64,000 bases of DNA. Origin: Cladosporium halotolerans (Eukaryota). The stretch covers positions 62,001-126,000 of the forward strand of contig NW_027191484.1 of the NCBI RefSeq assembly GCF_011745625.1. Direction: 5' to 3'. How positions within the stretch are numbered: the first letter of the stretch is position 1; the number at the start of each line of letters is the position of its first letter. The translations under genes were made by a program, and so were the position numbers. Shown here one piece after another: positions 30,908 to 52,378 of the stretch. The notes under the pieces are model-generated. The model had not been told where the DNA came from. It searched no databases and worked only from the letters and a program-made list of their open reading frames with translations.

Positions 30908-31920
30908 GGTTGATATGTTGGTTTGTGCGTTCGTTTGAGTGAGTGTTAGATTTTCTTTCTGATTGCTTCCTCTGATCACTGGGATCAACCGACAGATCGC
31001 TAAGAGGGAACGAGGGGGGATTCTAAAGAATGACAAGGCTCGTCAAGAGCACGTGGTGAAGGAATGAATGAGCAGCAGCCTCACAGAGGCGCGTAGCGAG
31101 AGTCGTCTGGAGAGCAGATGGGGAGAGCAAACGGACAACAGGCGGCGGAGGGCTTTAGAAGTAGTCGCGCCCTTGCGCCTGGATGACCGGCAACACGGCG
31201 CCTGGAGCAGCGCCATGCTGGGTCGAGACAGGGTCGCGCAGCGCCCAGGGATGCCATCTGCGTCCCTCGCGGCCGTTCTCCCATCACAAGCGGCAGTGTA
31301 GGCCGGACGCAGGCCCCACTGACTCGGTGAGGTGGACGCCGTCGAGGGCGAGATGGCACGGCTACCACGGTGCTGCGTGAGCTTCACGCGATCCAGATAG
31401 CCACAACTCTCCGTGGCGCTCGCTTCGCACGCCGCGGCCCTTCCAGGCGCTTATTGGCTTGCGCGCCTCGCGGCGCCGTCCCGTCCCGCGCGGAAGCTTG
31501 TTCCGTCCAGCTCGCGCGCCCGGTAGTCAGGCACCAAGCGCATCTGAAACGAGGCCCACCAGAGTCATGACGAGACGCAGGGATGCCGGTGGCTGTCTCC
31601 GGCCGCTGCGGATCCTCCAACATGCACTTGCCCAGCTCCGGCGGCAACATGAAGCACTGGCAGCGTTTGGCAGCATCCCGGCCGCATCCTGGCGGCGTTT
31701 GCGCGCGGCCAGCCTGCTCTCCAGGCCGGCGACTGGGGCGCCGCGGTGCTGGCGCCGCCTGGAAGGACCGGCACAAGATTGCCATGTGTGGATCGCCGCC
31801 CTCCTGCATATCCGAAACACCCTCCCAAGATGCTAAGATGGCCCCAAAATCCACCCTCGTACAGCGTCGCTCGGGGCTTATCGCCCAATGATTGGCCTGT
31901 TCTACACATCTATGTACGCG

Positions 31921-33412
31921 CTAGAATCTGTTGTCCGCCGTAAACAGCAGCAGCGCGAGACTGTGCCTTATCCACAGCCCTGCCAGACCGCACAGCGTCT
32001 GCATGACCAGGATCTCGGTCGCCAGCCGGTCCTCTCTGAGTGGCCCGCGCCAGACCAGCCAGAGGTTTAGGATCGTGAAATTGCTGGCCTCGGTCACTCT
32101 GCCCTTGCCGTCCGTCTCCACCTTCATTAAGTGCAATTTGCCCAGGACCTTGAGCGCCTCCCCAACGATAGGGCGCAGAGGCTTGTCCTCGTCGAACGTC
32201 GCGACCGACGGCTCCATCAAGCCGGTGCGCGCGTTGAAGCGCGGGAGCCTGTGTCGCGGACACGGCACGATCTTGAACAGCTGCGGGGCCGAGTAGCAGA
32301 AGTTAAAGATCTGGGGAATGAACAGCAGCAGCAGCGTCTTGCTGAAGTGCCCCAAGATTCCCACCACGGCAAACACCATGCCGGCGAAATAGCAGTAAGT
32401 ATCGCCGACGAAAACCTTCGCCGGAAACCAATTGTGCTGCAGCAAGGCGAGTGATACTCCAATGAACGGCAGCAGCAAATACACGCTAAAGAGGTGTGAT
32501 TCGGCTGCCGGATGCGGCTGATGCAGCTTTGGGGATAGGTAGAGCGCGTCGTTCAGGAGGAGGAGGAACGCAATCACGAGTGACTGCCCCACTTCGATGC
32601 CGTTGACTCCGGCCAGGATGTTGATGCAGTTTGGGCAGAAGATCGAAATTGCCGCCATGTAGAGGTAGTAGAATCCTCCCAGGTCCACCAAGTCGCCGAG
32701 ATAAGGTCGCAGCGGCAGAGGCACGACGACGTGGGTCACGCCGAAGTCGACGAAGTACAGGCCCAGCATTGGCAGCGCGGCAAACGCTGGGATGAAGAAT
32801 TTGTGTCGCCATCTCATGTCGAACGAATCGTCGAGGATTCCGAGGATGGTCACGGTTGCCAGCGTGCCGTATGCGAAGCCGTAGGATGCGAGCTGTGGGC
32901 CGTTAGTGAAGTCCTTCATTTTGCGACGAGGACAAGTTACCTTTTCGAGGGGAAATCGATGCAAGAAGCGTCCATTTTCGATTTCGGCTGCTTCAATAAT
33001 ACGATCCTTATCATTCGGTGCGAATGTAGCTGCAGCGATGTCGCGCTTGAACGCAAATGGCAGGAAGTTCACGATTGCAAGGAGATATACAAGCGCAGAC
33101 AGCAAGCCCATTGCCTCGGGGCTTTTGCGACCTGTCAGCAGATGTTTCATGCGAGGCCAACGTTGTGATTCCATCTACTCACAGTTCGATTGGATTTTTC
33201 TTCGACAAATCCTTGCCCTTGTAGCCTCGTCGAATGAACACATCGCCCGTCCACGGTATCAGCGCATATGAAAATGCAAACGCCAAACCTGAAATCGCCA
33301 GCGACGCGAACAGCGGCTCTCCATCGCTGCGCCAGGCGTTGACCAACACCGCAACGCAAGCGATGGACAGCACGCTCAGCGAAGAGACCTCCGTCGAAGA
33401 CAGAGCCCGCAT
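31921..33412 (-). CDS. ALG7: UDP-GlcNAc:dolichyl-phosphate GlcNAc-1-phosphotransferase
   Basis: GKDLSK..LPEAMG, LGILDD.FDMRWRHK, FCPNCINILAGVNGIE, PAKVFVGDTYCYFAG, CPRHRLP, NFTILN; two introns. Confidence 0.95.
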
Positions 33413-33887
33413 GACTGCCGCCGATGTTCTTCAGATCTTTCTCCGGACCGCGTCTTTGTCGGTCAGGAACATTCAACAGATCATTGATCGTTTAGGGAAA
33501 GCTGGCCTCCAGCCTCCGCTGGTTGCGCTTGCAACGCCGGATCAGCAGGGGCTTCGGCTGGCCTTGGCACTCCGCAGCGAAGGGCCCTCGACTGTGGAAC
33601 TGGAACAGGTCACAGGGACGAGCACCGTTTGCCTGGTCGACCCAAACACGAGATACGGGGTGCGTTTCAGGACTCTTTCGCTGCCGTGGAACGCAAGGGT
33701 AGATCACTTGCATCGTTGTAGGCCTCCCTGGGCGCACGCGTAACACCTCGGCCCCGTGAGATCTGCAGTCTTGACTGCTGTGTTCGATCGACGTGCTGCT
33801 GTCGCCACAGGGCTGCATGGACCTTTCTGGTGCGTTCCTAAAACACTCGAGAAGAATTGCTAGTGGCAGCAGACGGCTGCGCGAAAC

Positions 33888-35033
33888 ATGGCCTCGACCG
33901 GCGCCCATCGCTTCTCTCACGGCCATCGGGATTTGCTCCTGGCTGTCAGCTACAACATTTACGGCACGCGCGCCGCGACCTCTTCTTCGGATCACAAGCT
34001 GAAGGTCTGGGAGTGCAACGAGAAGACGGGCGCGTGGATTGTCACGGACGCGTGGACGGCTCATGATGCGCAGGTTACGGATGTGAAGTGGAACGGGCCC
34101 TACGTGGGCGAACACATCGCGTCCATTGGCGAAGACGGGACGGTCAAGATCTGGCAGGAAGATGTCAACGAGCCTACGAATTCTGGTCGACGATGGAAGA
34201 AGATCTTCCAATTGACGACTGCTACCGGTGTGCCATTCATGGGCCTGGATCTGAAGAACATTGGCGCCGAGAGCTACCTCGCTGTTTCCACCCGCGATGG
34301 CTACATCACTGTGTGCGAGCCAGAAGACCACGACGAGCTCACTTCCTGGCGGGTGCTATGGCAAGACTACCTATGCAAAATTTCCTCCAGGATGGACGAG
34401 ACGAGCTTCCGCCTGAGCTGGCACAAAGAGACCCTCCCCGCCTGGCCAGCCGTTCTCGCAGGCTTGGACCGCAAAAGCCTCGGTCTCGCCGTGGCTGTCG
34501 GAGACGTCGTGCGCATCCTGCGAACCGACGAAGACCGCAAGTTCTACAATGCAGCGGTCCTGGAAGGTGCGAAAGGGCTCGTCAGAGACGTCGCATGGTC
34601 CAATGGCAGCATGCGCGGCTTCGACACGCTCGCGACTGCGAGCAAAGACGGCTTCGTCAGGATCTACGAGCTTCATACACCAGGCGCAGCGTCATTCTCG
34701 ACATTGAGCACCAACGCAGAGGATGCTGAACCTGCGCGTCCGCGCTCGCAATTCCCTGCTGCTCGGCCGACGCGCTCTGGTATCGGTGCTGGGTTAGCAA
34801 GCAATGCTAAGGGCAAAGGCGATGATCAAGGGCATGCGCCGGGCGCGGTGAAGCAAGACGTGAAGCTGGTCGCGGAGCTCGAAGTCAGAGAAGGCATGCC
34901 GTGGAGAGTGTCCTGGAGTCCGACAGGCGACATGTTGGTTTCGACCGCCGACGAAGGGTCCGTTCGCATATGGAAGAAATCCGCCGAAGGCAAATGGCTT
35001 GAAGCCGCTGAGGTAGATTCGACGAAAGAATGA
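33888..35033 (+). CDS. SEH1: WD40 nucleoporin/SEACAT subunit Seh1-like
   Basis: HRDLLLAVSYNIYGTRAATSSSDHKLKVW, WTAHDAQVTDVKW, IASIGEDGTVKIWQE, WRVSWSPTGDMLVS. Confidence 0.85.
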   Translation: MASTGAHRFSHGHRDLLLAVSYNIYGTRAATSSSDHKLKVWECNEKTGAWIVTDAWTAHDAQVTDVKWNGPYVGEHIASIGEDGTVKIWQEDVNEPTNSGRRWKKIFQLTTATGVPFMGLDLKNIGAESYLAVSTRDGYITVCEPEDHDELTSWRVLWQDYLCKISSRMDETSFRLSWHKETLPAWPAVLAGLDRKSLGLAVAVGDVVRILRTDEDRKFYNAAVLEGAKGLVRDVAWSNGSMRGFDTLATASKDGFVRIYELHTPGAASFSTLSTNAEDAEPARPRSQFPAARPTRSGIGAGLASNAKGKGDDQGHAPGAVKQDVKLVAELEVREGMPWRVSWSPTGDMLVSTADEGSVRIWKKSAEGKWLEAAEVDSTKE

Positions 35034-35712
35034 AACGTTGTGCCTGGACGGAATTGGCGTGATGGTCGCCATGAAGTCGTCCTTCCCATTGCTTACCATC
35101 CGGGCTCTCCGGCGCAACAACACGCAAATTGCGTATGCTCTCCGCTGAATTAAAAACAATGGCATGCGTCCGCTGCCGGTCCATCCGAGCGCAATGTGCG
35201 GAACATCGTGAAGCTCAAACACGAAAGCGCCAGCATCGAGCTGCAGCACGCATTGCCGGAAGCGGTCAGCCGCACCTCGGCTTTCCCTCTGCCGTCCAAC
35301 GTCACCATCTGGGGACATCGGGTTCCACTCTTCAATCGACCTCAAGAAACTCACAGCTTGAGCTTGTGATTTCTTGACAGAAGGCAGCGCTGATCTTCCG
35401 CCGATTTAGCCTAAGTCGCATAGTATTAATCGCTTCGGCAACTCAGGTTCATTGCACCCCGCAAGCTCGGCTGAACTTGGCTATGGGTTGCGCGCCACCG
35501 GCAATACACCTCACGATTTCTTGCCCTCAAGACCACGGGCTGGCACTTGCAACATGACGGCATCAATTACCCCGGAACCGGCTGTCCGGAAGCACCTCAT
35601 GTGGTGTTCCTTGCAGCCCATGCGGAGGATGAGCAGCTACAAAACCAGTGTTCTTCCCCCAGAGTACTCTAGAATAATTCTCAATTGCAATACGCATTGA
35701 CCCAATTATAAA

Positions 35713-36925
35713 ATGAAGAACTCCGTTGTCACAGCCACTGCTGCTCTAGCTGCTGCTGCCACTGCAGCTCCGCCTCGATATGGTGGCCACCATCCGCCTG
35801 GTCGCCCTGGGGGATACCCCGGCCACGGGCCAAACGCCGACCATTGGAAGCTGAAGAAGTTCACAAGTCTTGTCGCTTTTGGAGACAGCTATACAGATGA
35901 TTCACGATTGGGATACTTCTTCGCGAACAACGGCTCAGCTCCGCCAGTTGGATGGGTCAACCCGGCAGTATGTCTGAGCCCACTATCTAAATCGCAATGC
36001 TTTTTTGCTGACCGTTCCGTAGAACTACATGTCCGCCGATGGGGGAAGGCCGTGGCCGCAATATGTTGCCCAATACTCTGGCGCCAATGTCTACAACTAC
36101 GCCGTATCCGGCGCCGTCTGCAGTAACAACATCACCCCACGCCAAGTTTCGGGCAACACCTTCAACTTCCCAGACGTAGAAGGATACGAAGTCCCTGCAT
36201 ACATCGCCGACTCCCGCTACGTCGACGGCAACGGGACGAAGTTCATGATCAACCCACCGGACGAGACCGTACACAGCATCTTCATCGGAACCAACGATCT
36301 CGGCAACGATGCTTTCATCACAGATTCCCAGGTCGCAAACAAGACCATCACGGACTACACAGACTGCATCTTCAACGCCATCCAAGGCGTCTACGATAAC
36401 GGCGGCCGCTACTTCGTCCTGCAGAACGTGGCGCCTCTGAACCTCGCGCCCCAATACGCTCTTCCCGGCAAGGGCGGTCTCGAGACGACGCAGTATTGGG
36501 AGAACAAGTCTGGCAACCTCACCGAGATCAGCTATAAGATGAAGGAGTACGTCTCGCTGGTGAACAACGTATTCAAGTACCAGACGCCATACGAGACAGA
36601 GGTCGCCAAGCGGTTCCCTGGCGCGCACATTGCTATTATGGACATCCATGGATTGGTAAGAGAATCCCATCCAACTCACGACGAAGACATTGCTGACCTT
36701 TCGCTTTAGATCACCGACATGTACAACAACCCGTCGGAGTATCTGAACGGTACTGCTCCTCTCGACGTGACTTCTTACGTCAACCTCAATGGCACACAGA
36801 ATGCGAGCCCGGACAGCTTCCTGTGGTACGATGAGCTGCACCCCAGCGAGCAGACTGATAGGGTCATTGCGCGGGAGTTTGTGGGCGTTGTAAATGGCGA
36901 TAGCCAGTGGGCGACGTACTGGTAG
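35713..36925 (+). CDS. Secreted SGNH/GDSL acetylesterase (CE16-like), 3 exons
   Basis: Signal peptide; LVAFGDSYTD, NYAVSGAVCS, IFIGTNDLG, FLWYDELHPS; introns 35968-36022 and 36656-36709. Confidence 0.9.
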
Positions 36926-38488
36926 AGATGAGCTGCTGTATACGTAGATGTGTTATCTGGACATAGACGAATGTCACGAATTTTGACAACGTCCAGTGAT
37001 GCTCAGGGCCATCATATTGTATCTTTCTTGAGACGTTCTCAAGTGTTGATCTTACCCTACTCTTTCGGCCCATCGAGAGTAGAGGTATTAATTACGTATG
37101 CTATTCCTCGGAACCGCTCACGCTGTTCTCCCCCTACTGACCTGGGTACCTAGGGTTAGGGTTGGGGTAGCCCACCACAACTACATCACCTCTCATGAAA
37201 CAGGCCTCTGCCCGCCTGAAACACAGCTGCACCATGGTCATCAATCAAGCTTCCAGCGGTACTCCGAACTCTGGTCACCATAGCCTCTCGATGGCGTAGT
37301 CTGCAGAAACGCCCCTCCCGCGCCACGCCCCGACTTTCCCCATCTGTCAACCGTTCCAGACCTCAACCCGCATTTTCTTATCGCATTCAGCATCTCGATT
37401 CTCCTCTTATAGCATCTCCACTTCCATGTGTAGCGAGATATCGTCCTAGTCCGCATGAGGCTTCCTGCGCGTTGCGCCACCCCGCGTGCATGCCAGCGCC
37501 ACGTTCGAGTCTAGGTTTAGATTTTGGCTTTCGCCGTGCATCTGTTCCAGGTCCTTGGCTCGCCACGTGCGGCTGAGACATGGCTTGCTTGATGGCCACG
37601 TGGTTGACGAAGATGTTGGCGAGATGCAGATGCGATGCGGAGAGTAGGCTGTCTAGACTGTGGGACTGGGTGCTGCGTTGGCGAAATGGGCCATTGGGGT
37701 GGGGTGTAAGGGGGCTGAGGTGTTCCTTTGGTTGTTTGGTAATGGGTGTGCAAACGCTTGGGTCGGGCGGAAAATTGTCGGACGTCGACGACAACGTTAG
37801 ACTCTTGCCTAACCACAGAAGACTGCAGAATTTGCTTTTGCGATTTGGACAGTGCTGGCTATCCTGTGATGTGGGTGCATACAACGGGAGATGGGTGAGG
37901 CGTATCCTGATGAAAGATCCCCCAATTACCCAAGATGGAGCTCGTTCAATTCACAGTATAGATCCATTGACGAACTAACATGAGGACTCAACTAACTTAC
38001 CCAAGACACTACAAGACAACCCGAGTCCCGTACTCAAGCCGGTAAGACTAGGTCTCCGGTCCTAGAACCTGTCATCGCCACCTGCACAGCAAAGCATCGA
38101 GCTCAATCGCGTCCTGATTGCTTGAGAAGGTAGGTGGTAGTTCCCCCAAGGCTTTTGACCAAAGTTGCCATCCAACCAAGAGTCTGGAGTTTTCTGATGG
38201 GGCCGAGGTTTGTGACGTCTTTTTCTGAGGGATGATTTCGCGGGATCTGTATTGGTCAGTGGCTGGCACACTGATGCTCACATGGCGGGCAAGGGGAGAG
38301 GATACGGTACCTCAATGCCACGATGAAATTACGTTTCACATCTCAGTGAAGCCAATATGTTCTTCACCATTTCACACCCACGATGGAATGACCTTTTTCA
38401 GATCGATTAATTGATAAGATCAAGTCAGACTGAATCACCGAGCTCACTGCTTGGAAGCACTAATGGTTTTACTTGTGCCGACGAACGC

Positions 38489-40363
38489 TCAAAAGTGCTC
38501 TTTGGCTTCCCAGAAGAGCTCACACTCCTCATCGACGCTACAATTGTCATCATCCGGTGAGGACTCATTCTCCTCCAAGCCGCACACCCGCAACGCTTGA
38601 ACATACTGTGCTTCCCTCCCTTCGCTTTGTGCTGAAGCGACTTGCCTCGGGGTGCATGCTCGTCCATGAAGAGATTCCGGCATGTGCGACATGAACGGCT
38701 TACTCAACACATCAGGGTCCGCGCCACGACCCAGTAGATCCCGCACTATAGCATCGTGACCGGCAGAGGCAGCTATATGGAGCAGCGTCCAGCCGCGTTC
38801 ATCTAGCATTGTAACAGAATGGTTCCCGAAGTACGGAAGCAAAGCTTTGTACGTTGCTTCATTCCCGTAGAACACAGCATGATGGAGCGCGTTCCAGCGT
38901 AGAGGTAAGGCCTCATGCTCGGGTCGCGCTCCCTGTCGTATCAGTTCCAGGAGCTCTGCAGCTGTTGCATAAGCCGCAACGCGGTGTAGGACTGTCCAGC
39001 CCTCGGTATCAACCACGTCCAGATCCTGCACGGCATCATCAGCAAGTAATTTGAGATAGTCCAGCATAGAAAATGTCCCAAATTGCAGCCGAGGCCAGCA
39101 GAAGAATGTAACATTCCAGCCGATAGTGTTTATGTGATCTTGCGAAGCCCCGCGGTCTAGCAACAGGCGCACTATATCGAGTTGCTTATGCCATATTGAC
39201 CACTGCAATGGTGTGGTTTGAAGAAGCCCAAATGTACCTTCCAAATCGGCGCCGCTATCGAGCAGCTCTTTTACGACGTCAGTACTGCCGTTTCGTATTG
39301 CAAACTACGCTGGCATTAGCATTTTTTTCTGACCGTCGGTGCGGTGGTCTTGACTGACAGCCAGTGGAGTCCAATTGCGCGCACCAATGTCCGTTCGCCG
39401 GCCTTCGTCATTTTTCAACATTCTTCGAACGGCGAGCAGATCGCCGCGATTACAAGCTACCAGAAACTCGTGATCGTTGTCGAGGACTCTCGCCAGAGCA
39501 AGCGAGCTTCCATGACGCAGGCTCAGATTCAATGGGCAGAGCGGGAATGTTCGTACCGAGACGGTCATGACGAGCATGAATCGGCCAAGGATCCGCGCAA
39601 GTGGAGTCGATATCTGCATTACAATGCAGTAATCCCGATACGGCCCTTGTGATGTCGGTATGAGGCTATAACGTACACCCCATGATGCCCAATCATCCTC
39701 CAGTGAAACGGGTTTGTATCGTAGAACCCGCTTCGTGGTCTTTGACACTTTGAGTGCTGGAACTGCAGATTCTGCTTCAGAGCCGCCGAATTGAGTGCGG
39801 AGTCCCGATGTCAATCCAGCGATCATGCTCTTAAGCTCATCTATACCACTCAAAGTCGAGCACTGGCCTCTACTAGGATACATGTCAGTAAATGGAGTCC
39901 AACGTCCAGAGGCAGTCAAAATGTCAATGCAAAAGCTCATTACATACAATGACAAGACCTGAAGCCAGTGCGACAGTCGTTCTTCCACGGCACTAAGCTT
40001 GACGATGATGCTTTCCATGTGCTGACTTTCAGATTTTGCCCACATGGTACGTTGACGAATGCTGCCGTACGCCTGAACGCGCGATAACACAGAGTCGAAT
40101 TGCTCGATACATTGGCGAGCGTCTCTCAGGAGATCTGCCAGAACGTTTTGACTTTGGACGTCAACTATTAGCGGATGTCCAGTGATGGAGGTGCAATGGA
40201 TAATGTCTAATTCGGCTTGGAGAGATACGATGAACGCTGCAAGGCGCTGCAGATCGTCAGGCGCATGTCTCCATCGGCTGTAGATGTTTTGTATCGATTT
40301 CAGAAGTACCGCGGTCGCTTGTATCAACGTGATGACACTCGCTGTGGCTCCTATGGGCTCCAT
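38489..40363 (-). CDS. HeLo-like/SesA-type fungal N-terminal domain + ankyrin-repeat protein, 3 exons
   Basis: N-terminus MEPIGATASVITLIQ..RWRHAPDDLQRL; ankyrin motifs WTPLA|FAIRNG, TPLQWS, GWTVLHRVA, WNALHHAV, GWTLLHIAASAGH; introns ~39873-39947 and 39305-39358. Confidence 0.8.
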
Positions 40364-40474
40364 TGCAAAATGTTAGTCGGTAGGGTATCAAGGAGAGTGC
40401 TACGAAACCATTTGTTTTCTAACTCTTCAAAGTCGCTCAGACGACTACTAGTGCAGCCTTGGATATGAGTTGTG

Positions 40475-40773
40475 GGTCGCATGTGCCGAGTAGGCTATAC
40501 CAATCATTGCTCGACACGTTGGCGTAGGTATTTGAGCTGTGCCTTGTCGCTAACCCATTATACTTGAATGGTGTGCCGGTCGCATACGCCGGATGAAGTA
40601 TACCAATCATTGCTCGACACGTTGGCGTAGGTATTTGAGCTGCGCCTTGTCGCTAACCCATTATACTTGAAGATGGTGTGCCGGTCGCATGCGCCGGATG
40701 AAGCTTACCAATCATTGCTCGACACGTTGGCGCAGGCTTTAAAGCTACGCCTTGTCGCTAACCCACTATACTT
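40475..40773. repeat. ~103-105-bp tandem repeat, about 3 copies
   Basis: Core taccaatcattgctcgacacgttggcg..gccttgtcgctaaccca.tatactt recurs; ggtcgcat starts at 40475, 40578 and 40683. Confidence 0.92.
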
Positions 40774-41565
40774 TTGGTTCTAGTATTCATACCAGATAGA
40801 GGCCCCGCCATTTGACGACTGTCTGAGATCTCTGCTGGCTTCCGACTGATCCTGGAGCACAGAAAACCAACTAAAGAGAGTAAATCTGCCAAACTACGGG
40901 AATCATGTCTAGCAAGTGGGTGGCATTCATTTGGAGGCCTGTGTTAAATGATCTTGTTGACCATCGACAGCTCCACTGGACACACTCCGTTTCCTCGTGA
41001 CCCACCAGATGGTCGTCACCGTACTCCATAGCCCAGCGAAGCAGATGCGCAAATCAGGAATCTGAACTCCGCTGTTCCAGGTGAGAAAGAATTCCAACTC
41101 GAGAAAGCAACTCGAGTTCCTGCTCTTCAAGTATCTGGGCGTCAAGGAACGCAGCATCGCATCTCGTGAGTTGTTGCCGGAATTACACCACAATGGCTTG
41201 CTGTCTTGTTGTCATGGAAGAATCGTCATAGCAGTAGATGGAGCTCACGATAGCTGACCATGTCCAGGCCTTCGACTCCGCGCATAGTACCTTACGATCG
41301 AGAAAAGTGCGTGTAAACATTAGTCAGGCTATCACACTCTGGAGGCTTGGTACCGATCCGCATGGACTTTTTACGAAAATACTTGCAAAGTACTAGGAAA
41401 TATGAAAGTTTGAAGTTACAGCGCTGCTTCGTTAAGTCTGTGCGCTGTTTTGGTTTCAAGCTGCGACGGGCGAGAGGCTATGCGCGCCTGCCTACCGTGC
41501 TTACGTAGGTAGAAGCTATGCCTAGTAGCTGGGTGCATCGCAGAGCTTCTCACAAATGTGAAAGC

Positions 41566-41573
41566 TATAAAAA
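41566..41573 (+). promoter_or_regulatory. TATA box at -30 of the 5S rRNA gene
   Basis: TATAAAAA 30 nt upstream of ACATACGACC, the position known for dispersed filamentous-ascomycete 5S genes. Confidence 0.7.
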
Positions 41574-41595
41574 CCCTAAACTTGAACTGGTGACC

Positions 41596-41636
41596 ACATA
41601 CGACCACAGGTCAGTGAAAACTGGGCATCCCGTCCG
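41596..41636 (+). rRNA. 5S rRNA gene, 5' 41 nt only (interrupted)
   Basis: ACATACGACCACAGGTCAGTGAAAACTGGGCATCCCGTCCG matches the ascomycete 5S 5' end (ACATACGACCA....GAAAAC.GGGC.TCCCGTCCG); similarity stops at 41637. Confidence 0.88.
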
Positions 41637-43480
41637 AAATCCCCCATTCTCACCGTCGTTCACGATATCAGGATCCCAGCGTGTTGCTACTGTAGTGTTG
41701 ATGGTCCCAACGACTCAAATCCTACCAAACACTTGCGTCCAACATCGCTGTGACAGGGAGTACGAACTTCACCTTGTGAGCGTTAGGAGAAGATGATATG
41801 CGAATTACAGGATAATAAGTAGCAGGTATCCAGTGTACGGAGCCTTAGGGTAATGTTTCCCCTGTTCATCTCACCGTGAATCATGAACAACGGATGATAG
41901 ACAACCGGGTTTGCCATGCTCCTAGAACGTGTGAACACACGATACGAACCATACCCCATCATCCCGTTACGCACCTGTAATGCATGGTTGATCAATCAGG
42001 ACGGGAACACGATAGAAAGAGATTTCTGGACCCATTTGCTTGTAGAATTTCCTAAATCTGCCCTTCTTCATTCCTCCATCTTGAAGATCGGGTTACCAAA
42101 CCTTGACCACGCTACGGGAAGCATCTCCAGAGATTGCATTCCTAGGCCGTTCCTTTTATGTTGAACGCAGCATCAGTCTCTACCTGTCGACATAGAATGA
42201 CAGACTATGATCCATAAACCAGGACACAGGAATTCGGCCATCAGAGTGCCACTTCCACGATTTGCGCGGGAGCCGCGATTCTAGAACGGGGAATTGAATC
42301 ATGCCGCGCTACCTTCCCCGTTGATGTGCCGCCGAGTAGAGGCCAGGCGCTTGGTCAGAAGTCGCAGGTGATTATGCAATCTTCGGGCTGCGAGAGTGCA
42401 GGCTTCCATGTCCCACAAGAGGGAAAATGATTGGGGGACGAGGTGGTCGCGCTAGCGGCTGACTGCAAAAGGCACAGCAGGGCTGTATTTGGAGACTCCG
42501 CATTGCACGGATAAGGGGGTATCTTGACAATGACGAGTTTGATACAAAGTATATCACGCGATGAAGACACGGCACGAAAACATGATGCTACGTTGATCTA
42601 AGTATAGCCGAAAGGTACAGGAAGTAGTTTGAGATCACTGAGACACGGCGGCACGGCATACGGCGTCGGTTTGGAGCTCTCCATGTAGCAAAAATAGGCC
42701 GAGTCGCATCATCCTGCCTTGCATTCTCTTGCACGGGACATCGCTCCGATCCTTGCCACAGCATGCTCATGTCAAAAAGTGCGTGTGCTGCATCCTGTCT
42801 TCCTGCGATCAAATCCTGGAACTAGAGGAAGCAGACGCGCGGGAAATCCGGAACAGGAACGCTCAGACACTAGTTCCGAGAAGCCGTCTCTGGCCATCAA
42901 AAGCCAGGTTTCCAAATGCGGGGATAGCTAAGCAGCGTGCCGCATATTGTGATTGCAGCGGCAGGCATACCACAGGCTCACAATTTCAGCGTGCCGCTTC
43001 TCATCAACTTCTGCTTCCCGTCTTGCTTTTTGTCTTCGATTACCAATGTGGGCCTTTTGGAGAGATTTTATGTACATAATTCGTTGAACAGCCAGGTTAG
43101 AACGCAGGAATGTTACCATCCGTGTCACCGATCTTCACACAGCATCACTGTCTTGAGATCTCAACATGACATTTGCCCAAGCCGAGGAGTCGTAGCTGCA
43201 GATCTGCTTGGGGAAGGAATTCCATATACTCTCGCACGCTCAGGCTCCTCATGATATCGCGGCACTTACGCGGGTGTGAAGCGGGGAGACGCGACAGCTC
43301 ACGTGTGGCTTGCAGCACAGTCTACCCCTGGGAGATAGCTCGCAAATGGTCCTTGTTCATTGCTTTTCCCACCACTCCAGCTGTTGAATCCCCGGATTTC
43401 TTTTTTGCTCAACTCCCTTGCTGTACCTTCAAACCCCGACAAGTGGATAGGTACACGGGACCTCTTTTAACTTCGAAAAC

Positions 43481-44038
43481 ATGGAAGTATCAGCGGACCG
43501 CCAGCGCGCGGTGCCAATGGAGGCGCATGTTGCCAGTACCAAGGGTGGGGTTGACAACCTCATCAACCTCAGTGGACTAACCGAATTTCCTCCCACAACA
43601 AATACAGCCAGCAAAGCCGGACCAGAAGTGGTAGAGCCATCCTGTCCGCCGAAGCCTCAACGCAGAAAATCCACGCCAATCTTGGCTGCTTGTTCCCAAT
43701 GCCAGAAGATGAAAATAAAGTGTTCGGGCGAGCGTCCTACTTGTTCATCGTGTTGCCTCCGTGTACTCCCATGTCGCTGGGGTGTCCGAGAAGGGTTGAC
43801 AAGACATGCGGACATGAAACAGACAATATCAGCTTCCACACAGCGCCAAATCGAGCTGGAGAGGTCTTTGGCAGAAACGAAAGGTCAGCTGAACGTTCTG
43901 ACACGATTTGTTCATACTCTTCGAAGTGGCTCTGATGCGGAGTCTGCGCTGGATCTTGCAAGACTGCGCCTCGGAACCGCAATCGAGGACATTGTCCGCT
44001 ATCAGGACTCCCGACTAAGCACCGCCCGCCCGATTTGA
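43481..44038 (+). CDS. Miniature Zn(II)2Cys6 protein (185 aa)
   Basis: ACSQCQKMKIKCSGERPTCSSCCLRVLPC, coiled coil, LRSGSDAESALDLARLRLG, then stop. Confidence 0.8.
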   Translation: MEVSADRQRAVPMEAHVASTKGGVDNLINLSGLTEFPPTTNTASKAGPEVVEPSCPPKPQRRKSTPILAACSQCQKMKIKCSGERPTCSSCCLRVLPCRWGVREGLTRHADMKQTISASTQRQIELERSLAETKGQLNVLTRFVHTLRSGSDAESALDLARLRLGTAIEDIVRYQDSRLSTARPI

Positions 44039-44582
44039 GGCTGGTAAGTTGCAGATCTTATCATCTTGGGTGGAAAGCACAAGAGCTCATAGGTGTCTAA
44101 CACAATCGCTGCACATGCAGCGAGGTCAGAAAGTATCATTGCTGCCAGCCTGGCTTTGGTGCAAGGTCTTCCCGCAGGCGCACCAAGATCACTTCGTGCT
44201 ATTGCAGATCAACCGATCGTCTCGCTGCGATGGGAAGACGCATGCTATTCCCATGTCTCTTTTCAATGACGCGGCGCCTGCGCAGGGGCTCTTACCTGAC
44301 GCCCGTCTTCCCGCTGCACCTCCATATCGAACGAGTAGCGTTGCGCTTTGCATCGCGATTTCCTCGCTCCAACGATTTGTCAAGAGGGCGGTTAACAAGC
44401 ATATGCAACGCAACATAGACCTCGAACCGTGCGCTTTTGCTTATAAAGGCCTCCGATCTCTTTGGCGTGTACGCTGGATGCATCACTGATTCATCGTCTT
44501 TTCATAATGCGGGCAAATTCTAAAGCTGCTTCGGAGCAAAAAAATATGAGCACCGGCTGGTGTGGATGCACGCACAGGAAGG

Positions 44583-45009
44583 ATGACATATTCAGCATGC
44601 TCGCAGTGCCGCAGTCGGAAGCTAAAAGTCGTCTCTTGCTGCGTAGGCGGTTAGGCATTCTGATAATAAGAAGCTGATCGTCCTTGCGGATAGTGCTCTG
44701 GTGAACGGCCAACTTGCAAGATGCGCGGAGAAAGATCGGGCTTGTGCATACGACATTGACATCGGAGTGACCCGGCGGCAGGCACTCATTTTGCAACTCA
44801 ACATGGCTCGTGAGCAGCTGAGCAATTGTAAGAATGTCATGCTTGCTTTGCAATATGGCTCAATCACGGATGCTACCGAGCTTTTGGCTCGACTACGGCT
44901 TGGAGAAGACGTCGATGAGTTAGCTAGCGTCGTAAGCCAGCGTCGAAGCACGTACGAGCATCGCATCGGTTATTCAGCAGACGTGGATGACACTGGGACA
45001 AGGCAATAA
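44583..45009 (+). pseudogene. Frameshifted miniature Zn(II)2Cys6 gene
   Basis: SACSQCRSRKLK | intron 44628-44693 | CSGERPTC, then a frame change to RCAEKDRACAYD..LQYGSITDATELLARLRLG; in-frame TGA at 44547 upstream. Confidence 0.7.
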
Positions 45010-45293
45010 AACATCGACACCACCAGCAACAACTTGCTATCATTTCCTGCTTCTAAGAAGAAACTGTTCGGGACCGCAGTCTGCTAGTGTGGCGCTGAAA
45101 TGCTGGACCACGATACAGTACGATACCTGCGTTTGTCTTTGCTTGAAAGCTAGCAAGAGGCAAGATTGTCAGGGCGCAGAGATCTGGCCTTGAAACCAAT
45201 TGCGACTATTACAGGCATTCTCAAAAGTCATGTCAACTAATCTCTTAATGACCTCCGATTTCTACGCTCTCACTTTCGATGTTTTCGGAACAC

Positions 45294-45795
45294 TCACGTC
45301 GAGTCGCTCAATGATTTTGCTACGTTCATAGGGTCTTTCGACGCTCGTATCTCCCGGAACGCTTCCCGAGCCTGACGGCTCGAGCAATTTCGAATATAAT
45401 GAAAGAATCCGTGGAAGTCATTCACTTCCACTTGCAGTACGGTGATCTTTCGCTGGAGGGATGCGAAACGTGTTGAGTTAGGTTCAACATCGTACTCGCA
45501 AGGGGCACCCTTGTTCGCACAACGTTCGCAAGAAGGTCGCCGGCTATCGCACTACTGAAGTGTCAGAGCCCTTCTAGAGCCTTCTTTTTTACCAGGTAAA
45601 ACTTACCTTCGCTTTCCCCCTCTGGCAAGCTATACACGCAACTTTGACCTGACTTCTCCGTACCCGCGATATCGGCGGCGACAGCGCTTGGAGGTTATTA
45701 ATATTGGCGTCGATCGTCCGAAAGACAGGATCCAATGTGTGAGCAGTCGTGCTTCTAGGCGCTAATAACCTTGGTGCTCGTTGTTCCCTAGCCAT
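45294..45795 (-). CDS. Miniature Zn(II)2Cys6 protein (~148 aa), 2 exons
   Basis: VKVACIACQRGKAK | intron 45552-45606 (GTAAGT..CTGAC..TAG) | CDSRRPSCERCANKGAPCEY..AREAFREIRASKDP..ST*; the stop overlaps a possible GTGAGT donor. Confidence 0.8.
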
Positions 45796-48095
45796 CGCCA
45801 CGCAAACAAATTTGATTTGATCTGAGTGAGGTCTGTGCCTGATACAGACAAAGCTTCTAGCGTGAATGTTTGAGAACTCGCAAAGATTGATGTGGGAGAG
45901 ATGCAGTGCAGACTGCTTGGTGATGTATCGCAGCGCGACTCCCTGGCAACTGAAGGATCAGATCGATCGGAGGAGGCGGCTTAGACCGTGTCCCGTCCTG
46001 CACATTGGCCGCCTGCATCCTGGTACCGCTTATGTACAGTAGTGAATGAACGTGTAAGAAATCAGGGCCTAGTTCCTGCATCGCCTAAGCTTCCCCGCAG
46101 GCATGCGATCAATGAGCAAACGGCAACTTCGTGAAGGAGCAATGCTGAGGTGTCGCAGCAACCTCATATCGGTTAGCCGAAGCCAACACGTCACACCTGG
46201 TTCAATGCTTCCCTGCAGCGAGACGTCGTTCCAGAGCTTCTCCGAGAAGCGCGTTACTGCGTCCACAGCTTGCATCTCGACTGCACTTGTATGCGATTGA
46301 TTCAGCCCTACATTGGCGCCCAGATTCAGGGTTTCCTCTTACGACGTGAGAGCTGACAGTCCAGACCCTTGACCTGCATGAACGCTGCAAGCCGTCCTCT
46401 GTGTCGTCTCCTGGAAGGGCCGCCTTTGATTGGCTAGTCACTATGGGACACTAGCGGAAGCAAGCAGCTGCCTATGAATCGCGGTTGCAAAACGCTTAGA
46501 CGGTACAATGCCATGCATCGCAAGGTCTTGGCAGGGGACCTTCTATGAGCTTCCATACGGTTTTGCTCCCCCTGCTGCGGAACGATGACCGCCCGCATCG
46601 GTATCAAAACCGCTGAGACGCGGTCTCGTTGCGGACGGACAGACGGCAAGCCCGCCTTGCGGCACGGAGCCGACCGATCGAATCAATGGTAGCAGAGGTC
46701 GCGACATCGGAGCTTCTCCGCGTCTGGCCCTCATCAGTGGACCCGAAGGCTGATCCTGCCGAAAAACCGGTCTTGCGCTTTTCTGCATGCCGCAACCTTC
46801 GTCATGGTCTCTAGCTGGATGCATTTGGATGCACGACATTCTTCTCGTCGTAGCGCATCTGGCGCATCTACTTTCAACTCTACTCAGACCGCGTGACGCC
46901 TTTCCGCAGGCTCGAAAGCAGACGCGTCGAACGATGACGGCGACGATTTGGACGAGGGGACGGCTGTCCGCGCGATCGGTGCCCCGACACATGGTCAGGC
47001 CGATAGGCAAATGACAGGAGAAGAGCAAGAGATGGAATATTAATCAGTTATGGCGTGGATAACAGATGCAGAGCGAAGATCAGAAAAAACGTCCCGGCAC
47101 AGGTGGACGGACATTACCTGTGCAGCTCTGGCTTGACCGTGAGCAGAACTCGGCCATCGCGGGTGTCTTCAATAGAAAGCGAGAGCGCTTCGAGGCAAGC
47201 GGCGGTGTGCGACTCGCGCAGCTTCGCCTTGCGAAATACGCGCATTCGGACCGCTTCCCCGGTGCTGCAGAGCTCCACCACCCTTTCCGGATAGAAGGCG
47301 CGAATGGCTGTGCAATCTACGCGCTCTCGTAGCGCCCGATTGCATAATCTCCAACCAATTGCATCTCGCATGAAGGTCTTTTGCTTGCCACCATCCACAT
47401 CTTACCGCGTGTTTGCCTTACACTCAACACCACTTCATTGTCCGAGTCCGAATATGTCTCAAGATGCCTAGGCGTGCATGTTCGCAGAGCGGAAATGTCC
47501 GAGCGTCAGGCAGCATGTGCCATACCTCGTGACCGCTTTAACCTCAGGCGGAATACGAAAGCGTTCTGCTGCGGGCAATCCGGCGTGTCGCAAATGGCTT
47601 CTGCCGAGCTTGACCTTCCATCCTGGACGACGGGTACAGTAACGGAATGACGTTCTTCGGCAGATTTGGCGCGCTAGCGGATTAAGCGAGGAGAGCTACA
47701 GCCGATCGTCATCGGGCGTCAGCGTTTTGCCACGCAAATATGTTCTCTCATGGGTTCATGAGTCCGCGGCGACATCCGCACACCTATTCCCTCGAAATGC
47801 CACATGTGCTTCTCTCCGTGCACTCGTCACGTGCTTGTCCAAGATAATATGTGAGTCCCCAAATTCCTGAAGTATAAGACCGACTCAACGGGCCCTGTGC
47901 GTGGCTGCCGGACAAGCGATGCGTCTTTGCCGCGATGGGGTGATACTGATGGCGCGAACAGCCTGCCTTCTACAAAATGTCTAAATGGCCGTGACAACTT
48001 CCATATATTCGGCCTGATCGATCATCTATGAAGAACTTTCAAATTTCTTAAGAGTACTCGATCGAACGACAGCCGCTACATCCACCGAACGCACG

Positions 48096-48602
48096 ATGAA
48101 CGAGAGCATGCCCGTCCATTTCTCCGCGGAAAGTCTCCGAAATGAGTGTTCTGGGACATCCCAGAGGGAAACTGGGTCTTCAAACGAGGCGAGTGAGAGC
48201 ACAAAGCGCATGCAACAGACAGCGAGGAGCAGCGACATTTCAGACATTGTACCGAAGCCTTGTGAGTTGGCTATCGCAATCACGGAGGATAAGAAAATGC
48301 GTAGTGAAGGCCGCTGTCTACATTGCAAAAAGAGGAGAGCGAGGTGCTCAGGGCAGCCTCCAGCCTGTCAGTCTTGTAGAGAGCGTGGGCTGACCTGCTC
48401 ATGGGACAATGGGCACGGTTTAACATGGCAGCAAGACCTGGTACGATCGCCACCAGACCAGCCACAGACAGACAATCTGTATACGCTTGTTTCTGCATTC
48501 CGAAGCAGGTCAGACGATGAGGCTACAATGTTGCTGGCTAGATTACGGCTGGGCGCTTCCGTCGGAAGTCTCGTGGAATCGATACGCACGGATTCCATCT
48601 AA
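48096..48602 (+). CDS. Miniature Zn(II)2Cys6 protein (168 aa)
   Basis: CLHCKKRRARCSGQPPACQSCRERGLTC..FRSRSDDEATMLLARLRLG..DSI*. Confidence 0.8.
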   Translation: MNESMPVHFSAESLRNECSGTSQRETGSSNEASESTKRMQQTARSSDISDIVPKPCELAIAITEDKKMRSEGRCLHCKKRRARCSGQPPACQSCRERGLTCSWDNGHGLTWQQDLVRSPPDQPQTDNLYTLVSAFRSRSDDEATMLLARLRLGASVGSLVESIRTDSI

Positions 48603-50353
48603 GACTTCAACGAAGACAAGTGCTCTCCTGTCACGCCTAAGGATCACTACGTTCAGAAGGCCATCCCCGAATGCTTGATCCTCGGCCTGTGATTGTCAGC
48701 TGAAAGAGCGCCGACTGCACGAACGCGGTAGTGAGATTCACGACGCGCTGTGCTCGACACTTCTTCCCAAACTTGCGCTGCCGGTACGAGCATCGCGTGC
48801 AACACAGAACCACGCACATATATCTTCATTGGAAAGCATGGGCAACGAGGCATTAGACGATTTCCACCGGACAGCATGAGGGCATCTGAGAGGTACATTA
48901 GCAAGCTAGAAACGTATCCTCGTACCCGGGGGATAAACGTCCACACGCGCGACGAACCGAATCTTTAGAACGGGTCTGCATCACTGTGCGTCTTTCGCAG
49001 GGCTGTTGATACGAATGTGCTGCACCGCACTCAATCCAAAGGATCTTGGGCAGATCGATTGTAAGTTATGCATGACGGGCGACTTCTCACAAAAGATGAT
49101 GCATGATGTTCAAGACTGCAGTAACCGACCAACCGTCAAACTGCTCAAGGTGTCATGACTGCAGATCGATGTTTCTGGAGTCGCTGAGCGATGGAGGCGA
49201 TTCCATACTATCCAAGCTTGCTCCTCGACTGCTCTTTCATCTCCTTCACCATCCTCCGCGCTTCCGCCTCTGGGTCCGTAGTCTTTGTATCGAAGGAAGC
49301 GACAGCGAGCTGAGCATGTGTGTCGCGACCAATTTTGGCCACGAATTTCTTCAGAGCCGTGCTTCGGCTGCGAATAGACTTGGAGAACGAAGTTCTGTTT
49401 GTCGCCTATCCTCTCACCAGCATCGACACGTAATTGAGCGTTTACATCCTCGCGTATGTGCAAAGGGGCGACTCGACGCCCTGGCGTGAACGTCTTGGTT
49501 GTCGCAGCCTTTGCAAGGCTACCTGGAGTCGGCGTATTGGAGAGACGGCTTCGATGGCTTCGAACGTTTTTGGAATTCCGTGATATGGGTTAATCTCGCA
49601 CTTCGGTATCAATGTACCATGGAGAGTGGAGCAAACGTCGGAGCAACGACCGAGATCACCACATCTGATGCAAATCGGCGCCATCGGAGGGCGTTTCAGA
49701 ACAGGAGGCCTTGAGCTCGATGTTGTTCATTCCCAGTCCCGAAATACGGTACGTCTAATAAGTAAGCGGCTACGCGCTTAGAAGCTGCTGCGTCCCGCCT
49801 CTTGACTATCTTTCCATGATTCGTCTACGCTATCAATTTTGCGCTATGTCAAGATTTGACGATCTATCATGTTTCAGGCGCAGGGTTGAAGAATACATTG
49901 TCTCGTTAGATGTTCCAACACATGCAAAGGAAAGCTCACTCGGTAAGAACAGCGCGCCCCGGTAAGATTCCCGTTCCCTCTAGGTTTCTCGTATTCACCT
50001 TGACTTAATCTACAGCCATGTTTTTATCCGGAACAGTCTCCTACGGTGTAGTTGTGGCCTTGTGTTGCCATATAACGCATGGAGACGTAGATTGCCCACT
50101 TCTTCGGGACACCAGAACTGCCAACGAAGACGCATTTTTCAAATCCGAAGCGACGCTCAAATGCAATTAGACTCTTCCCTGTAAGACTCATGAACCTGAC
50201 GCTGACTCTGCTCTTACAGAATGAGTAACGTTGAACCGCGTTGTGCCCTGCGTCAAGGTCAAACATATGGGCATGCTATGCAAGGCAGCAAAGATGACAA
50301 AAGACTCGCATAAGGAATACGTAAGGCATGGCCGTCTCCGACCATCAACTCCT

Positions 50354-51150
50354 TCAGTAAGACGCCCAGTCAGCATCAGGCCACCTCAAGTACTTCACTC
50401 GCCAAAATGAAGATCTCCGAGATACTCTGTTCAAGCGCACCAGATTAGGGTTGGACATCGACCCAGACGGGAGCAGATCTCGTACGGTCTCAGCTACTAG
50501 AATGAGATACATGCTCTTCGAGTACGCAGATAAGAGTCTCGCAACGGTAACATTGGAGACTGCAATGCCGATAGAGATCCACTTTTCGACACCTTGCAAC
50601 CTCGAGATAACCCAGCGTTACAACAGAAGACCGTCGCAATGAACAAATGATAAGAAGTCACGTGCACCCCGCATTCATCCAAGGCGTCGATCACGGCTGT
50701 CAGCCCAACAAGAGTTTGCACATTGCCTGCAAGAAGGCTCTCGTTTTCTGCAATCGTGTGATTCCTTCTCCACGTAAAGGTTGTGGGATTCTGAGACGGG
50801 TTCAGGGACTTCAGGTTGGATGTTGATGGTTCGGCGAAGTATACTGGATAGCATGACTTCCGAAAGAGTGTACAGTCTGTTCCGCGTAAAGACAATAGAC
50901 GAACACTACCGGACGATCGGCTGTGTGCTGGGTTCGAAGAGGATGATCAACAACGAAAGCAGCCATGACGGTTTCCCCGGCGCCGGGGATACCAGGATAG
51001 ACCGTAGTCGAATCCTTCAGGCGCATCCATGTTTGAAAATGATAAGGGCTTCATTCTATCATCAGTTCTGCTGCAGCAATGATGTCAGAAGCCCCGTGCA
51101 CTGATGTTGCGTTGCGATGGTATTAGGCGTCCAGTGCATTGGCCTTCCCA
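50354..51150 (-). pseudogene. Degenerate NACHT (STAND/NLR-like) NTPase remnant
   Basis: YPGIPGAGETVMAAFVVDH..VVFVYC (Walker A with K->E) and VIDALDEC (Walker B) lie in different frames; boundaries approximate. Confidence 0.7.
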
Positions 51151-51583
51151 CAAGACCCCTCAGGCTCGCCGCGGATATGCCTCAAATTGTTCCCACCCCG
51201 CACACTTGGACGGCCGCGTCCAAAACTCGCTAAGTGACGTACGAATATCTGGGAACTCTGTCGAAGCTTCGACGGCCGTGAGCTACGCTGCGCTCTCGCC
51301 GGCGATTCCAAGGGGTTTTCCTTGAGCGAAGGGTAAACAAAGTCTGCAGATGGAGCAGAGGACACAAGTCAAGTGGCACTTAAGTGCAAAGTTCATGGGC
51401 GGGTGCAAGGCAATGCAGCCGAAATCTACCACTAAAACGTATCACGCGAAATCCAAGCTCCGGTGCGCAATGTTAGGATGTGAAGGCGGTTCGCACGGTC
51501 GGATCCTCTGAGACTTCTTGGTAGTCTTGCCATGACAATCAATCTCCTTGCAGACCGTAGCAGTGGCGGTTCCTTGAATATCT

Positions 51584-52378
51584 TTAAGTTTCCTGTAGAG
51601 CGTCCAGCAACAACACGACTATCTGCGAATAACGTGCCGCTGTTGCATCTTCGTGCTGCAACCGAGTCTTGCATCTTTCAAGCAATGCTGCAGCGTCGTT
51701 TCCTGTGTAGTGGCAACTTGTCGGTAAAGGTATACTCCCGACCAACGCGGCGGCTTGGACAGCATTCCCGTGCTTGCCACCGTTGATGTTTGCATCAGCG
51801 CCATGCTCGAGGAGATCTCGGACCATGGCCACCTGTCCCTCAACGCAAGCAATTTGTAAAGCGGTATGGTAGGGCCCTGCGACTTGATTCACATTGGCGC
51901 CGTGTTTGATAAGCGCAGAAAGAATACGACGGTCACCATAAGCCGCAGCTAGTTGTAGAGGTGTGCCGAAGGACGAAGACTCCGTGTCGGCCGCCGCACC
52001 GCATTGCAAGAGGCGCTCGACAATGGCCTCGTTGCCACCAAGGATGGCAGCTTGCAAAGGAGTTTCGAACGGACCTCCGACGCAATTAACGTTGGCACCT
52101 CGCGTGATGAGCATATCCACCATGGTCGGACGGCCCTCCTCAGAAGCGGCCAGAAGTGCAAAGCTTAGGCACTCGACATCTCGTTGATCATATCTTTCAT
52201 GATACAACATGTGTTGGAACCCGTCATCCTCGACTTGGGCAACCGAGGAGGCTAGAGCGCATTGTTCCTCATGTGCGTGCTGGCAAGCGATGGCATTGGT
52301 GGTGCTTCGATTCAATCGAGGGCGGCGTGCAAAGTTCGTACTCCCCATACGGTCGTTTGGCGTCGGAGATCGGTTCAT
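51584..52378 (-). CDS. Ankyrin-repeat protein (start uncertain; possibly an NLR fragment)
   Basis: ALLAASEEG..GANVN, TPLQAAILGG, TPLQLAAAYG..GANVN, TALQIACVEG..GADAN, NAVQAAA. Confidence 0.7.
   Translation of the reverse strand: MNRSPTPNDRMGSTNFARRPRLNRSTTNAIACQHAHEEQCALASSVAQVEDDGFQHMLYHERYDQRDVECLSFALLAASEEGRPTMVDMLITRGANVNCVGGPFETPLQAAILGGNEAIVERLLQCGAAADTESSSFGTPLQLAAAYGDRRILSALIKHGANVNQVAGPYHTALQIACVEGQVAMVRDLLEHGADANINGGKHGNAVQAAALVGSIPLPTSCHYTGNDAAALLERCKTRLQHEDATAARYSQIVVLLLDALQET

Follow-up and report, generated by a model that had tools for sequence, protein, structure and literature searches.

A Cladosporium halotolerans 5S rRNA gene cut after nucleotide 41 as the probable captain-distal junction of a Starship-type element

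A stretch of 64,000 nucleotides (nt) from Cladosporium halotolerans (assembly GCF_011745625.1, contig NW_027191484.1, positions 62,001-126,000 of the forward strand; hereafter the window) contains a 5S ribosomal RNA (rRNA) gene that is interrupted after its nucleotide 41. The boundary at 41636/41637 is likely the captain-distal (3') junction of a cargo-mobilizing element of the Starship type, inserted in loop C of a dispersed, TATA-driven 5S gene. The defining gene of a Starship is its captain, which encodes a DUF3435 tyrosine recombinase. The evidence consists of the identity of the 5S fragment, an exact break that recurs at other 5S loci, a conserved terminus behind the break, a match to the direct repeat of a catalogued Starship, and a block of accessory genes to the right of the junction.

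The interrupted 5S gene and its conserved terminus

The 5S fragment occupies 41596-41636 on the plus strand and comprises nt 1-41 of the gene, that is helix I, helix II, the 5' strand of helix III and part of loop C. Read directly, the gene starts at 41596 with ACATACG (ACATACGACC), and its -30 position is occupied by the TATA box TATAAAAA (41566-41573, plus strand), the promoter element that precedes dispersed fungal 5S genes. The last 5S-like letters, ...CCCGTCCG (...ATCCCGTCCG), end at 41636 and are followed by AAATCCCCCATTCTCACC. For comparison, metagenome contigs were searched with a degenerate pattern built on this 41-mer, which returned at least 117 5S loci. A TATA-like 4-mer was found at -36 to -19 in 76 of the 106 intact loci with enough upstream sequence among the matches listed. 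Two loci (L078 and L095) begin with the same 41 nt (41/41 identical) and continue with CTCTGCCATACATAAGCACTGAACC...TGTTGTATGT and a T run; both are full 5S_rRNA genes by Rfam (RF00001), at 78.5 bits each against a gathering score of 38.

When a profile was made from 81 intact fungal 5S genes of 119 nt among the matches listed, its sole hit in the window was at 41596-41637 (profile positions 1-42, E 2.4e-9), the runner-up having an E value of 0.93. The 41-mer itself occurs once in the window and in none of 100 shuffles. Rfam made no 5S call on the fragment at the gathering score of its covariance model. Relaxing the threshold to E<=10 gave no 5S either, whether the query was the whole window, 41000-42500, or 41540-41637 submitted as a truncated end. 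The score is too low because a piece of 41 nt lacks its pairing partners. For 5S nt 43-119 there was no profile match below E 0.93 elsewhere in the 64 kb, on either strand; an 11-nt exact match, CATCCCGTCCG at 53447-53457 on the minus strand (E 1.3), was taken as chance. The window thus holds a mutation-free 5' piece of a 5S gene behind its promoter box, as a first-pass annotation of this DNA had described it, and the 3' 78 nt, which that annotation could not find in the 22 kb to the right, are absent from the entire window. Production of 5S rRNA depends on the internal control regions of the gene. By this established property of 5S promoters the interrupted copy is predicted to be unable to make 5S rRNA, because its internal control regions have been removed.

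The break is not peculiar to this copy. At five of the 117 loci among the matches listed (L055, L073, L085, L102 and L115), the 5S gene is cut after the same base and is followed by AAAT. All five fall within the 50 listed loci whose first 41 nt differ from those of the window at two positions or fewer, and their upstream flanks are unrelated to one another and to that of the window. These are independent insertions at one target position, two of them (L073 and L085) with the terminus family of the window. At the remaining listed loci apart from L089, the 5S sequence continues for at least 12 nt past the break position. Two loci that a regular expression had flagged as broken (L001 and L116) were recognized by eye as sequence variants of intact genes. 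L089 carries a 5S gene of another sequence type (the GGGTGTGG variant), broken near nt 62 after ...AAGCCACA by unrelated sequence; this break probably marks a different 5S target site.

Behind the five broken loci, 158-400 nt of each related element were read. In the window, the element terminus (copy 1) spans 41637-41736 on the plus strand, and a direct-repeat family, D2, begins exactly at 41637. The first ~50 nt of this terminus, AAATCCCC.ATTCTC..C.TC.T....GGAT.CCAGCGT.TT, are kept in other genomes. L085 and L073 have ~50 nt of the right-hand sequence of the window in common and diverge from it completely beyond that point, as expected for a fixed end beside variable cargo. In the termini of this first family (at 41637 and at 52774 in the window, and at L085 and L073), 30 of the first 52 alignment columns are invariant. 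L055, L102 and L115 have a second type of terminus, which starts with AAATCA, and a TTCCAGGAxC motif lying ~30 nt in was seen by eye in both types.

A break at a constant base, left flanks that bear no relation to each other, and a short conserved terminus that gives way to unrelated DNA together characterize a site-specific mobile element whose cargo varies. The proposal of the first-pass annotation that the break is the boundary of such an element has therefore held, with five of the 117 listed loci cut after the same base into related termini. The ~50-nt terminus starting AAATCCCC is likely to be the arm bound by the recombinase. Two further searches were uninformative or empty. The core motif CCGTCCGAAATC, with two mismatches allowed, gave three matches against 6.06 expected, and the 22-mer across the junction had no match among genome contigs and none among viral contigs.

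Correspondence with catalogued 5S-targeting elements

The 17 nt directly before the break, ACTGGGCATCCCGTCCG (41620-41636, plus strand; 5S nt 25-41), are the reverse complement of a catalogued direct repeat. That repeat belongs to the Starship laspus2_s07456 of the starfish catalogue (PMC11162782, tables S3, S7 and S9); we take the code laspus2 to stand for Lasallia pustulata as the host. In table S7, this Starship lies on contig FWEW01002174.1 between boundaries 76156 and 141422 (65 kb), and 'cggacgggatgcccagt' is given at both boundaries. The same source places its DUF3435 captain at 76713-78975 on the plus strand, names an empty-site reference contig, and assigns the captain to 'clade01', with near relatives labeled 'fam08' in the tables; the part of the supplement searched gave no family name for the captain. 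The reverse complement of cggacgggatgcccagt equals ACTGGGCATCCCGTCCG, and its final base is the base at which the 5S gene of the window breaks. On the sequence evidence, ACTGGGCATCCCGTCCG would be the counterpart of one direct-repeat copy, since an element should have such a copy at each of its two ends.

The layout of laspus2_s07456, as far as the tabulated boundaries describe it, also gives the junction its orientation. The 5S strand runs opposite to the captain, with the 3' part of the 5S gene beside the captain end and the 5' part beside the distal ('down') end. By this geometry, the junction in the window is the captain-distal end, as the first-pass annotation had supposed, and a captain would be expected on the minus strand, a long way to the right. 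Since laspus2_s07456 is 65 kb long, a distance of more than 22 kb to the captain would be expected in the element of the window too. The two are alike in the repeat (in reverse complement), in the end base within the 5S gene, and in the position of the 5S 5' part at the captain-distal end. They are unlike in cargo, since the table entries for laspus2_s07456 list a transcription factor, an AAA/aminotransferase gene and transposon genes.

The proposed course of insertion can be outlined as follows. A DUF3435 tyrosine recombinase, encoded by a captain on the minus strand beyond the window, would recombine the joined ends of the element with ACTGGGCATCCCGTCCG. Each end of the element would receive one copy of the 17-nt segment. 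The 5S gene would thereby be split into nt 1-41, which are seen in the window, and a distal piece expected to read as the 17-mer followed by nt 42-119 (CTCTGCCATACATAAGC...), and the split copy would be inactivated through the loss of its internal control regions. The recombinase may read the hairpin of helix III and loop C, which by nature forms an imperfect inverted repeat.

Other catalogued elements target the same region of the 5S gene. Among them are the fuscul and fussol Starships (fuscul1_s05160, fussol1_s06317 and relatives), whose codes we read as denoting Fusarium hosts. Their target is the same conserved ATCCCGTCCG motif of 5S loop C that is cut in the window, and their cargo, as tabulated, includes Zn-cluster, NLR and other accessory genes. 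Their direct repeat is tcccgtc (gacggga in reverse complement; PMC11162782), and they differ from the window in that this repeat has 7 nt rather than 17 and ends two bases earlier in the 5S gene. More generally, PMC11162782 reports that 23% of 222 curated Starship insertion sites fall in 5S ribosomal DNA (rDNA), that there are at least five distinct Starship target sites within 5S, that the direct repeats of Starships are almost always strand-specific, and that Starships can be inserted in nested or tandem fashion. Voyager of Macrophomina phaseolina is described in PMC9156397 as a giant DUF3435-mobilized element always found in dispersed 5S rDNA copies, which become fragmented; its insertion point lies 20 bp from the 5S start, whereas the junction in the window follows nt 41. 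The Osiris navis of Aspergillus fumigatus is likewise presented as a giant DUF3435-mobilized element that always inserts into, and fragments, dispersed 5S copies (bioRxiv 10.1101/2024.06.28.601215). An analogy between Starships and bacterial integrants at tRNA and tmRNA genes has been drawn in PMC9156397. Those bacterial integrative elements and phages, which use tyrosine integrases, also have a short identity segment, lying within a conserved small-RNA gene, duplicated at both ends of a large insert with cargo. They usually restore the RNA gene, whereas the 5S copy in the window is broken, the host is a eukaryote, and the recombinase family is a different one.

A second terminus, the empty site and alternative explanations

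The terminus recurs in the window. Copy 2 (52774-52873, plus strand) has the same orientation as copy 1, is 81% identical to it over 100 nt, and lies at a spacing of 11137; the homology between the two starts exactly at 41637 in the first. Copy 2 is preceded by GTCGTCCA and not by a 5S piece. To the left of 52774 stands an ankyrin open reading frame (ORF) instead of the captain and the full 17-nt repeat that a simple tandem insertion predicts. The second terminus suggests that at least two units in the same orientation are nested or stacked here, either as a smaller element nested in a larger one at a pseudo-site or as an 11.1-kb unit without a captain stacked on another. The first-pass annotation had taken everything to the right of the junction to be the cargo of one element; the terminus at 52774 makes that picture too simple, and the change in composition and gene content starts ~3.5 kb to the left of the break.

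Similar arrangements were found behind two of the broken metagenome loci. On the 5S-sense strand from nt 42 to ~245, L102 and L115 carry units of ~171 and 196 nt that start with AAATCA, each followed by TCCGTCCG and another terminus, which indicates that stacking at this junction occurs in nature. These units may be miniature stacked derivatives or subterminal repeat arrays. They are rich in CACGTGAT palindromes and TTCCTGGAAC motifs. Tentatively, the pair of termini in the window, the second of which would stand behind a degenerate remnant of the repeat, and the units at L102 and L115 could be Starship derivatives that have lost the captain, ranging from non-autonomous to miniature, and that form stacks through successive insertions at the junction of an element already in place. 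A limited literature search turned up no description of stacking Starship derivatives without a captain.

How is the region represented in other genomes? Part of 36637-46636 is contained in 23 public sequencing runs, and Logan contigs of four of them (X1, X4, X22 and X23; the longest contigs per run) were placed on 31637-51636. In these contigs, the bin with the 5S piece has 7-40 times the depth of neighboring bins, several different sequences join before 41595, and CTCTGCCATACA... continues behind 41636, so that many dispersed intact 5S copies are present in these genomes. Other junction variants continue behind 41629, 41638 and 41642 and point to other insertions at or near the same site. 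Contigs of X22 and X4 carry 41632-51636 at ~99% identity, while their left-flank contigs are 92-97% identical to the window. The interior differs at 53 of 8278 nt in X22 (five contigs: 1/901, 23/2520, 2/413, 17/2631 and 10/1813) and at 91 of 7694 nt in X4 (three contigs: 14/1366, 20/1687 and 57/4641). On the left flank, X22 has 524 differences over 32867-40534 and 70 in 920 nt, and X4 has 82 in 2389 and 50 in 916 nt. Lower divergence in the insert than in the flank fits recent movement or transfer of the element, although the samples may be mixed or hybrid.

Two candidates for an informative allele were set aside. The contigs of X1 cover 33288-40525 (50 differences in 7237 nt) and 40613-41622 (1 in 1010), and depth is 0 at 42309-44976 and 47645-51636. 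This pattern fits a strain free of the insert, but missing contig cover is no evidence, no contig joins across the site, and the pattern was given no weight. One X22 contig (record 10) extends from the left flank across the 5S piece as far as 41662, beyond which it carries terminus-like sequence unlike that of the window. It was not counted as bridging the junction because it has 26 letters to the right of it where 31 are needed; its path may be chimeric, the 5S-plus-terminus stretch exceeding the word of the assembler.

Domain content was searched by Pfam scans of stop-to-stop ORF translations. These covered 16 ORFs, 56 ORFs of >=90 aa from 38.4 kb on, 136 ORFs of >=115 aa in 1-38.4 kb, and 150 of the 171 ORFs of 52-89 aa from 41586 on, the other 21 small ORFs overlapping two long ORFs at 58.5-62.1 kb or lying beyond 63.2 kb. 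Across the whole window, the scanned ORFs gave no match to DUF3435, another recombinase, a reverse transcriptase or a DDE transposase.

Several observations count against a Starship junction at 41637. The gene that defines the class, the DUF3435 captain, was not seen among the ORFs scanned in the 22.4 kb to the right of the junction, as the first-pass annotation had anticipated; this is consistent with the junction being the distal end. The scans found no captain before 52774 either, though a simple tandem insertion would predict one, and the second terminus sits at a non-5S site where 8 of the 17 preceding positions match the repeat by eye. As to the short direct or inverted repeat that the first-pass annotation proposed to look for at both ends, one boundary is seen, and the 17-mer there is, in reverse complement, the repeat given in the table for laspus2_s07456. 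A second copy of this 17-mer does not occur in the window even with up to three mismatches, and 40300-64000 contains no inverted repeat of 25 nt or more. The comparison with laspus2_s07456 was made by the tabulated repeat alone and not by terminal sequence. An empty site was not demonstrated in the runs, where contigs break inside the multicopy 5S sequence and none bridges an intact gene, and none of the metagenome loci listed has the left flank of the window. Finally, both the drop in guanine-plus-cytosine (GC) content from ~0.58 to ~0.50 and the transition to genes of accessory type set in near 38 kb, ~3.5 kb to the left of the junction, which indicates that the 5S copy already lay in variable DNA.

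In one alternative explanation the inserted DNA is a remnant or non-autonomous derivative without a captain, namely an 11,137-bp unit (41637-52773) with only a Starship-type 3' terminus, stacked on a unit that begins at 52774. Such a unit could have arisen if elements integrated repeatedly at the junction of one already in place, or if the captain end decayed. Two termini in the same orientation 11137 bp apart, the lack of a recombinase in the scanned ORFs between or after them, and the stacking of AAATCA units with TCCGTCCG at L102 and L115 speak for it. Yet GTCGTCCA matches the end of the repeat at only five of eight positions (by eye), the ankyrin gene to the left of 52774 shows no recognizable element end, and the nesting of a smaller element in a larger intact one explains the same facts. 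We regard this explanation as unlikely, though it is the strongest competitor of the captain-distal Starship junction.

A mobile element of another class that targets 5S genes is much less probable still, whether a site-specific retrotransposon without long terminal repeats (non-LTR), a Crypton or DIRS-type element, or a DDE transposon directed to small-RNA genes. It gains some room from the fact that the recombinase is unseen and that the class assignment rests on the tabulated repeat of one catalogued element and on general resemblance. No reverse transcriptase, endonuclease, DDE or tyrosine-recombinase domain was found in the 22.4 kb, however, and the conserved end lies at a fixed base without an A-rich or simple-repeat tail. 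Beyond ~50-100 nt the copies no longer resemble one another, which sets them apart from short uniform transposons, and the insert comprises at least 22 kb of ordinary cellular-type genes. Membership among non-LTR retrotransposons or 5S-derived short interspersed elements is contradicted by the missing reverse-transcriptase (RVT) and endonuclease matches and by a terminus without a 5S head at 52774. An explanation without site-specific insertion, be it a common 5S pseudogene, a retroposed sequence with a 5S head or the breakpoint of a rearrangement, is already disfavored and has hardly any probability left. Dispersed fungal 5S families do include pseudogenes, the fragment has no Rfam call, and by eye no obvious TATA-like box precedes three of the six broken copies, but six independent copies (the window and the five listed loci) break after the same base into homologous sequence, the terminus also occurs without a 5S head at 52774, the 41 nt are unmutated behind a TATA box at -30, and the tabulated repeat of a catalogued element for which an empty site is named ends at the same base. 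The captain-distal junction of a Starship-type element accordingly remains the explanation we favor.

Cargo, left flank and significance

The interior of the inserted element or elements extends from 41637 to 64000 and continues past the window, with a GC content of ~0.50 as against ~0.58 in the core part to the left. Two Zn(2)-Cys(6) transcription-factor exons lie on the plus strand, at 43451-44035 and 48018-48599 (Pfam Zn_clus, E 2.7e-6 each). Run X23 is RNA-like, with intron-like joints (GT..AG and GC..AG, at 49960-50015 and 50162-50220), and has a depth of 250-475 across 47.6-50.3 kb; the Zn-cluster gene there is transcribed and spliced. A fragment with the N-terminal domain of NACHT proteins (50814-51050, minus strand; NPHP3_N, E 4.2e-7) is followed by an ankyrin-repeat ORF (51587-52780, minus strand; Ank_2, E 9.8e-29). 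Farther right are a HeLo domain plus kinase-like protein (58550-60418, plus strand; HeLo, E 5.6e-32, with DUF7580 and PK_Tyr_Ser-Thr) and a protein kinase with ankyrin repeats (60626-62110, minus strand; Pkinase, E 4e-26, and Ank_2, E 5.2e-28). Pfam also recognized a kinase fragment in this part and a PigL_N fragment at the edge of the window. Accessory cargo on the scale of tens of kb, at least 22.4 kb of it, is thus present as in Starships.

An ORF at 54578-55231 (plus strand) has an SsdA-like C-terminal domain (Pfam SsdA_C, E 6.8e-16, 59.1 bits against a cut-off of 27). SsdA is a bacterial single-strand DNA deaminase toxin, and the ORF neighbors the NLR-like and HeLo-kinase genes. Judged from its domain match, it may represent a fungal conflict or allorecognition toxin domain.

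The element also contains a multicopy repeat at 45545-47107, where depth peaks in all four runs, including X1, which otherwise leaves the interior uncovered. Loose contig ends at 47107 were seen in X1 and X23. No Pfam match and no protein family was found for this repeat, which is a probable fragment of an unrelated transposon. Contigs of X4 link 41627 and 41686 with positions 46700 and 47101 of the opposite strand, so that in some genomes the repeat stands directly behind the junction of 5S and terminus.

To the left, 37 kb of the window carry core genes by Pfam, among them those for ORC4, a queuine tRNA-ribosyltransferase, a DDI1-like protease, a GT4 glycosyltransferase, a THOC3-like WD40 protein and GH71. 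Within the WD40 gene, 350 nt (34244-34592) hold 26 of the listed differences of X1, as against 50 over the whole 7237-nt X1 contig, and many of the 26 are common to X4 and X22; this stretch resembles a patch from a divergent haplotype. The core genes are separated from the 5S gene by DNA of already lower GC, with an ankyrin-repeat reading frame of 627 codons (38492-40372, minus strand) that has one in-frame stop at 39305-39307 and is either a pseudogene or a gene with an intron. It is followed by a tandem repeat of three ~103-nt copies, 86-90% identical (40465-40773). Just 3' of this repeat, GT..AG joints at 40915-40971 and 41075-41263 in X23 reveal a transcript of the plus strand that is spliced.

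The targeting of 5S genes by Starships, the exact repeat, its orientation, the strand specificity of such repeats and the occurrence of nested and tandem insertions are already in print, and current understanding is unchanged. The added value is modest and lies in a conserved terminus defined by sequence across genomes, and in stacked termini. For C. halotolerans, the finding marks the entry point of a large block of accessory genes (NLR-like, HeLo-kinase and deaminase-toxin-like) into the genome. For Starships, it defines by sequence a clean junction at one of the 5S target sites, the one in loop C that follows nt 41. The conserved terminus and the stacked termini are raw material for defining the cis-acting sites of the recombinases, which are still poorly known. 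Should the tentative account of stacking derivatives without a captain be true, the ~50-nt AAATC...TTCCAGGAxC terminus, common to two diverged families, would be the minimal cis-acting site of a recombinase clade that targets loop C of the 5S gene.

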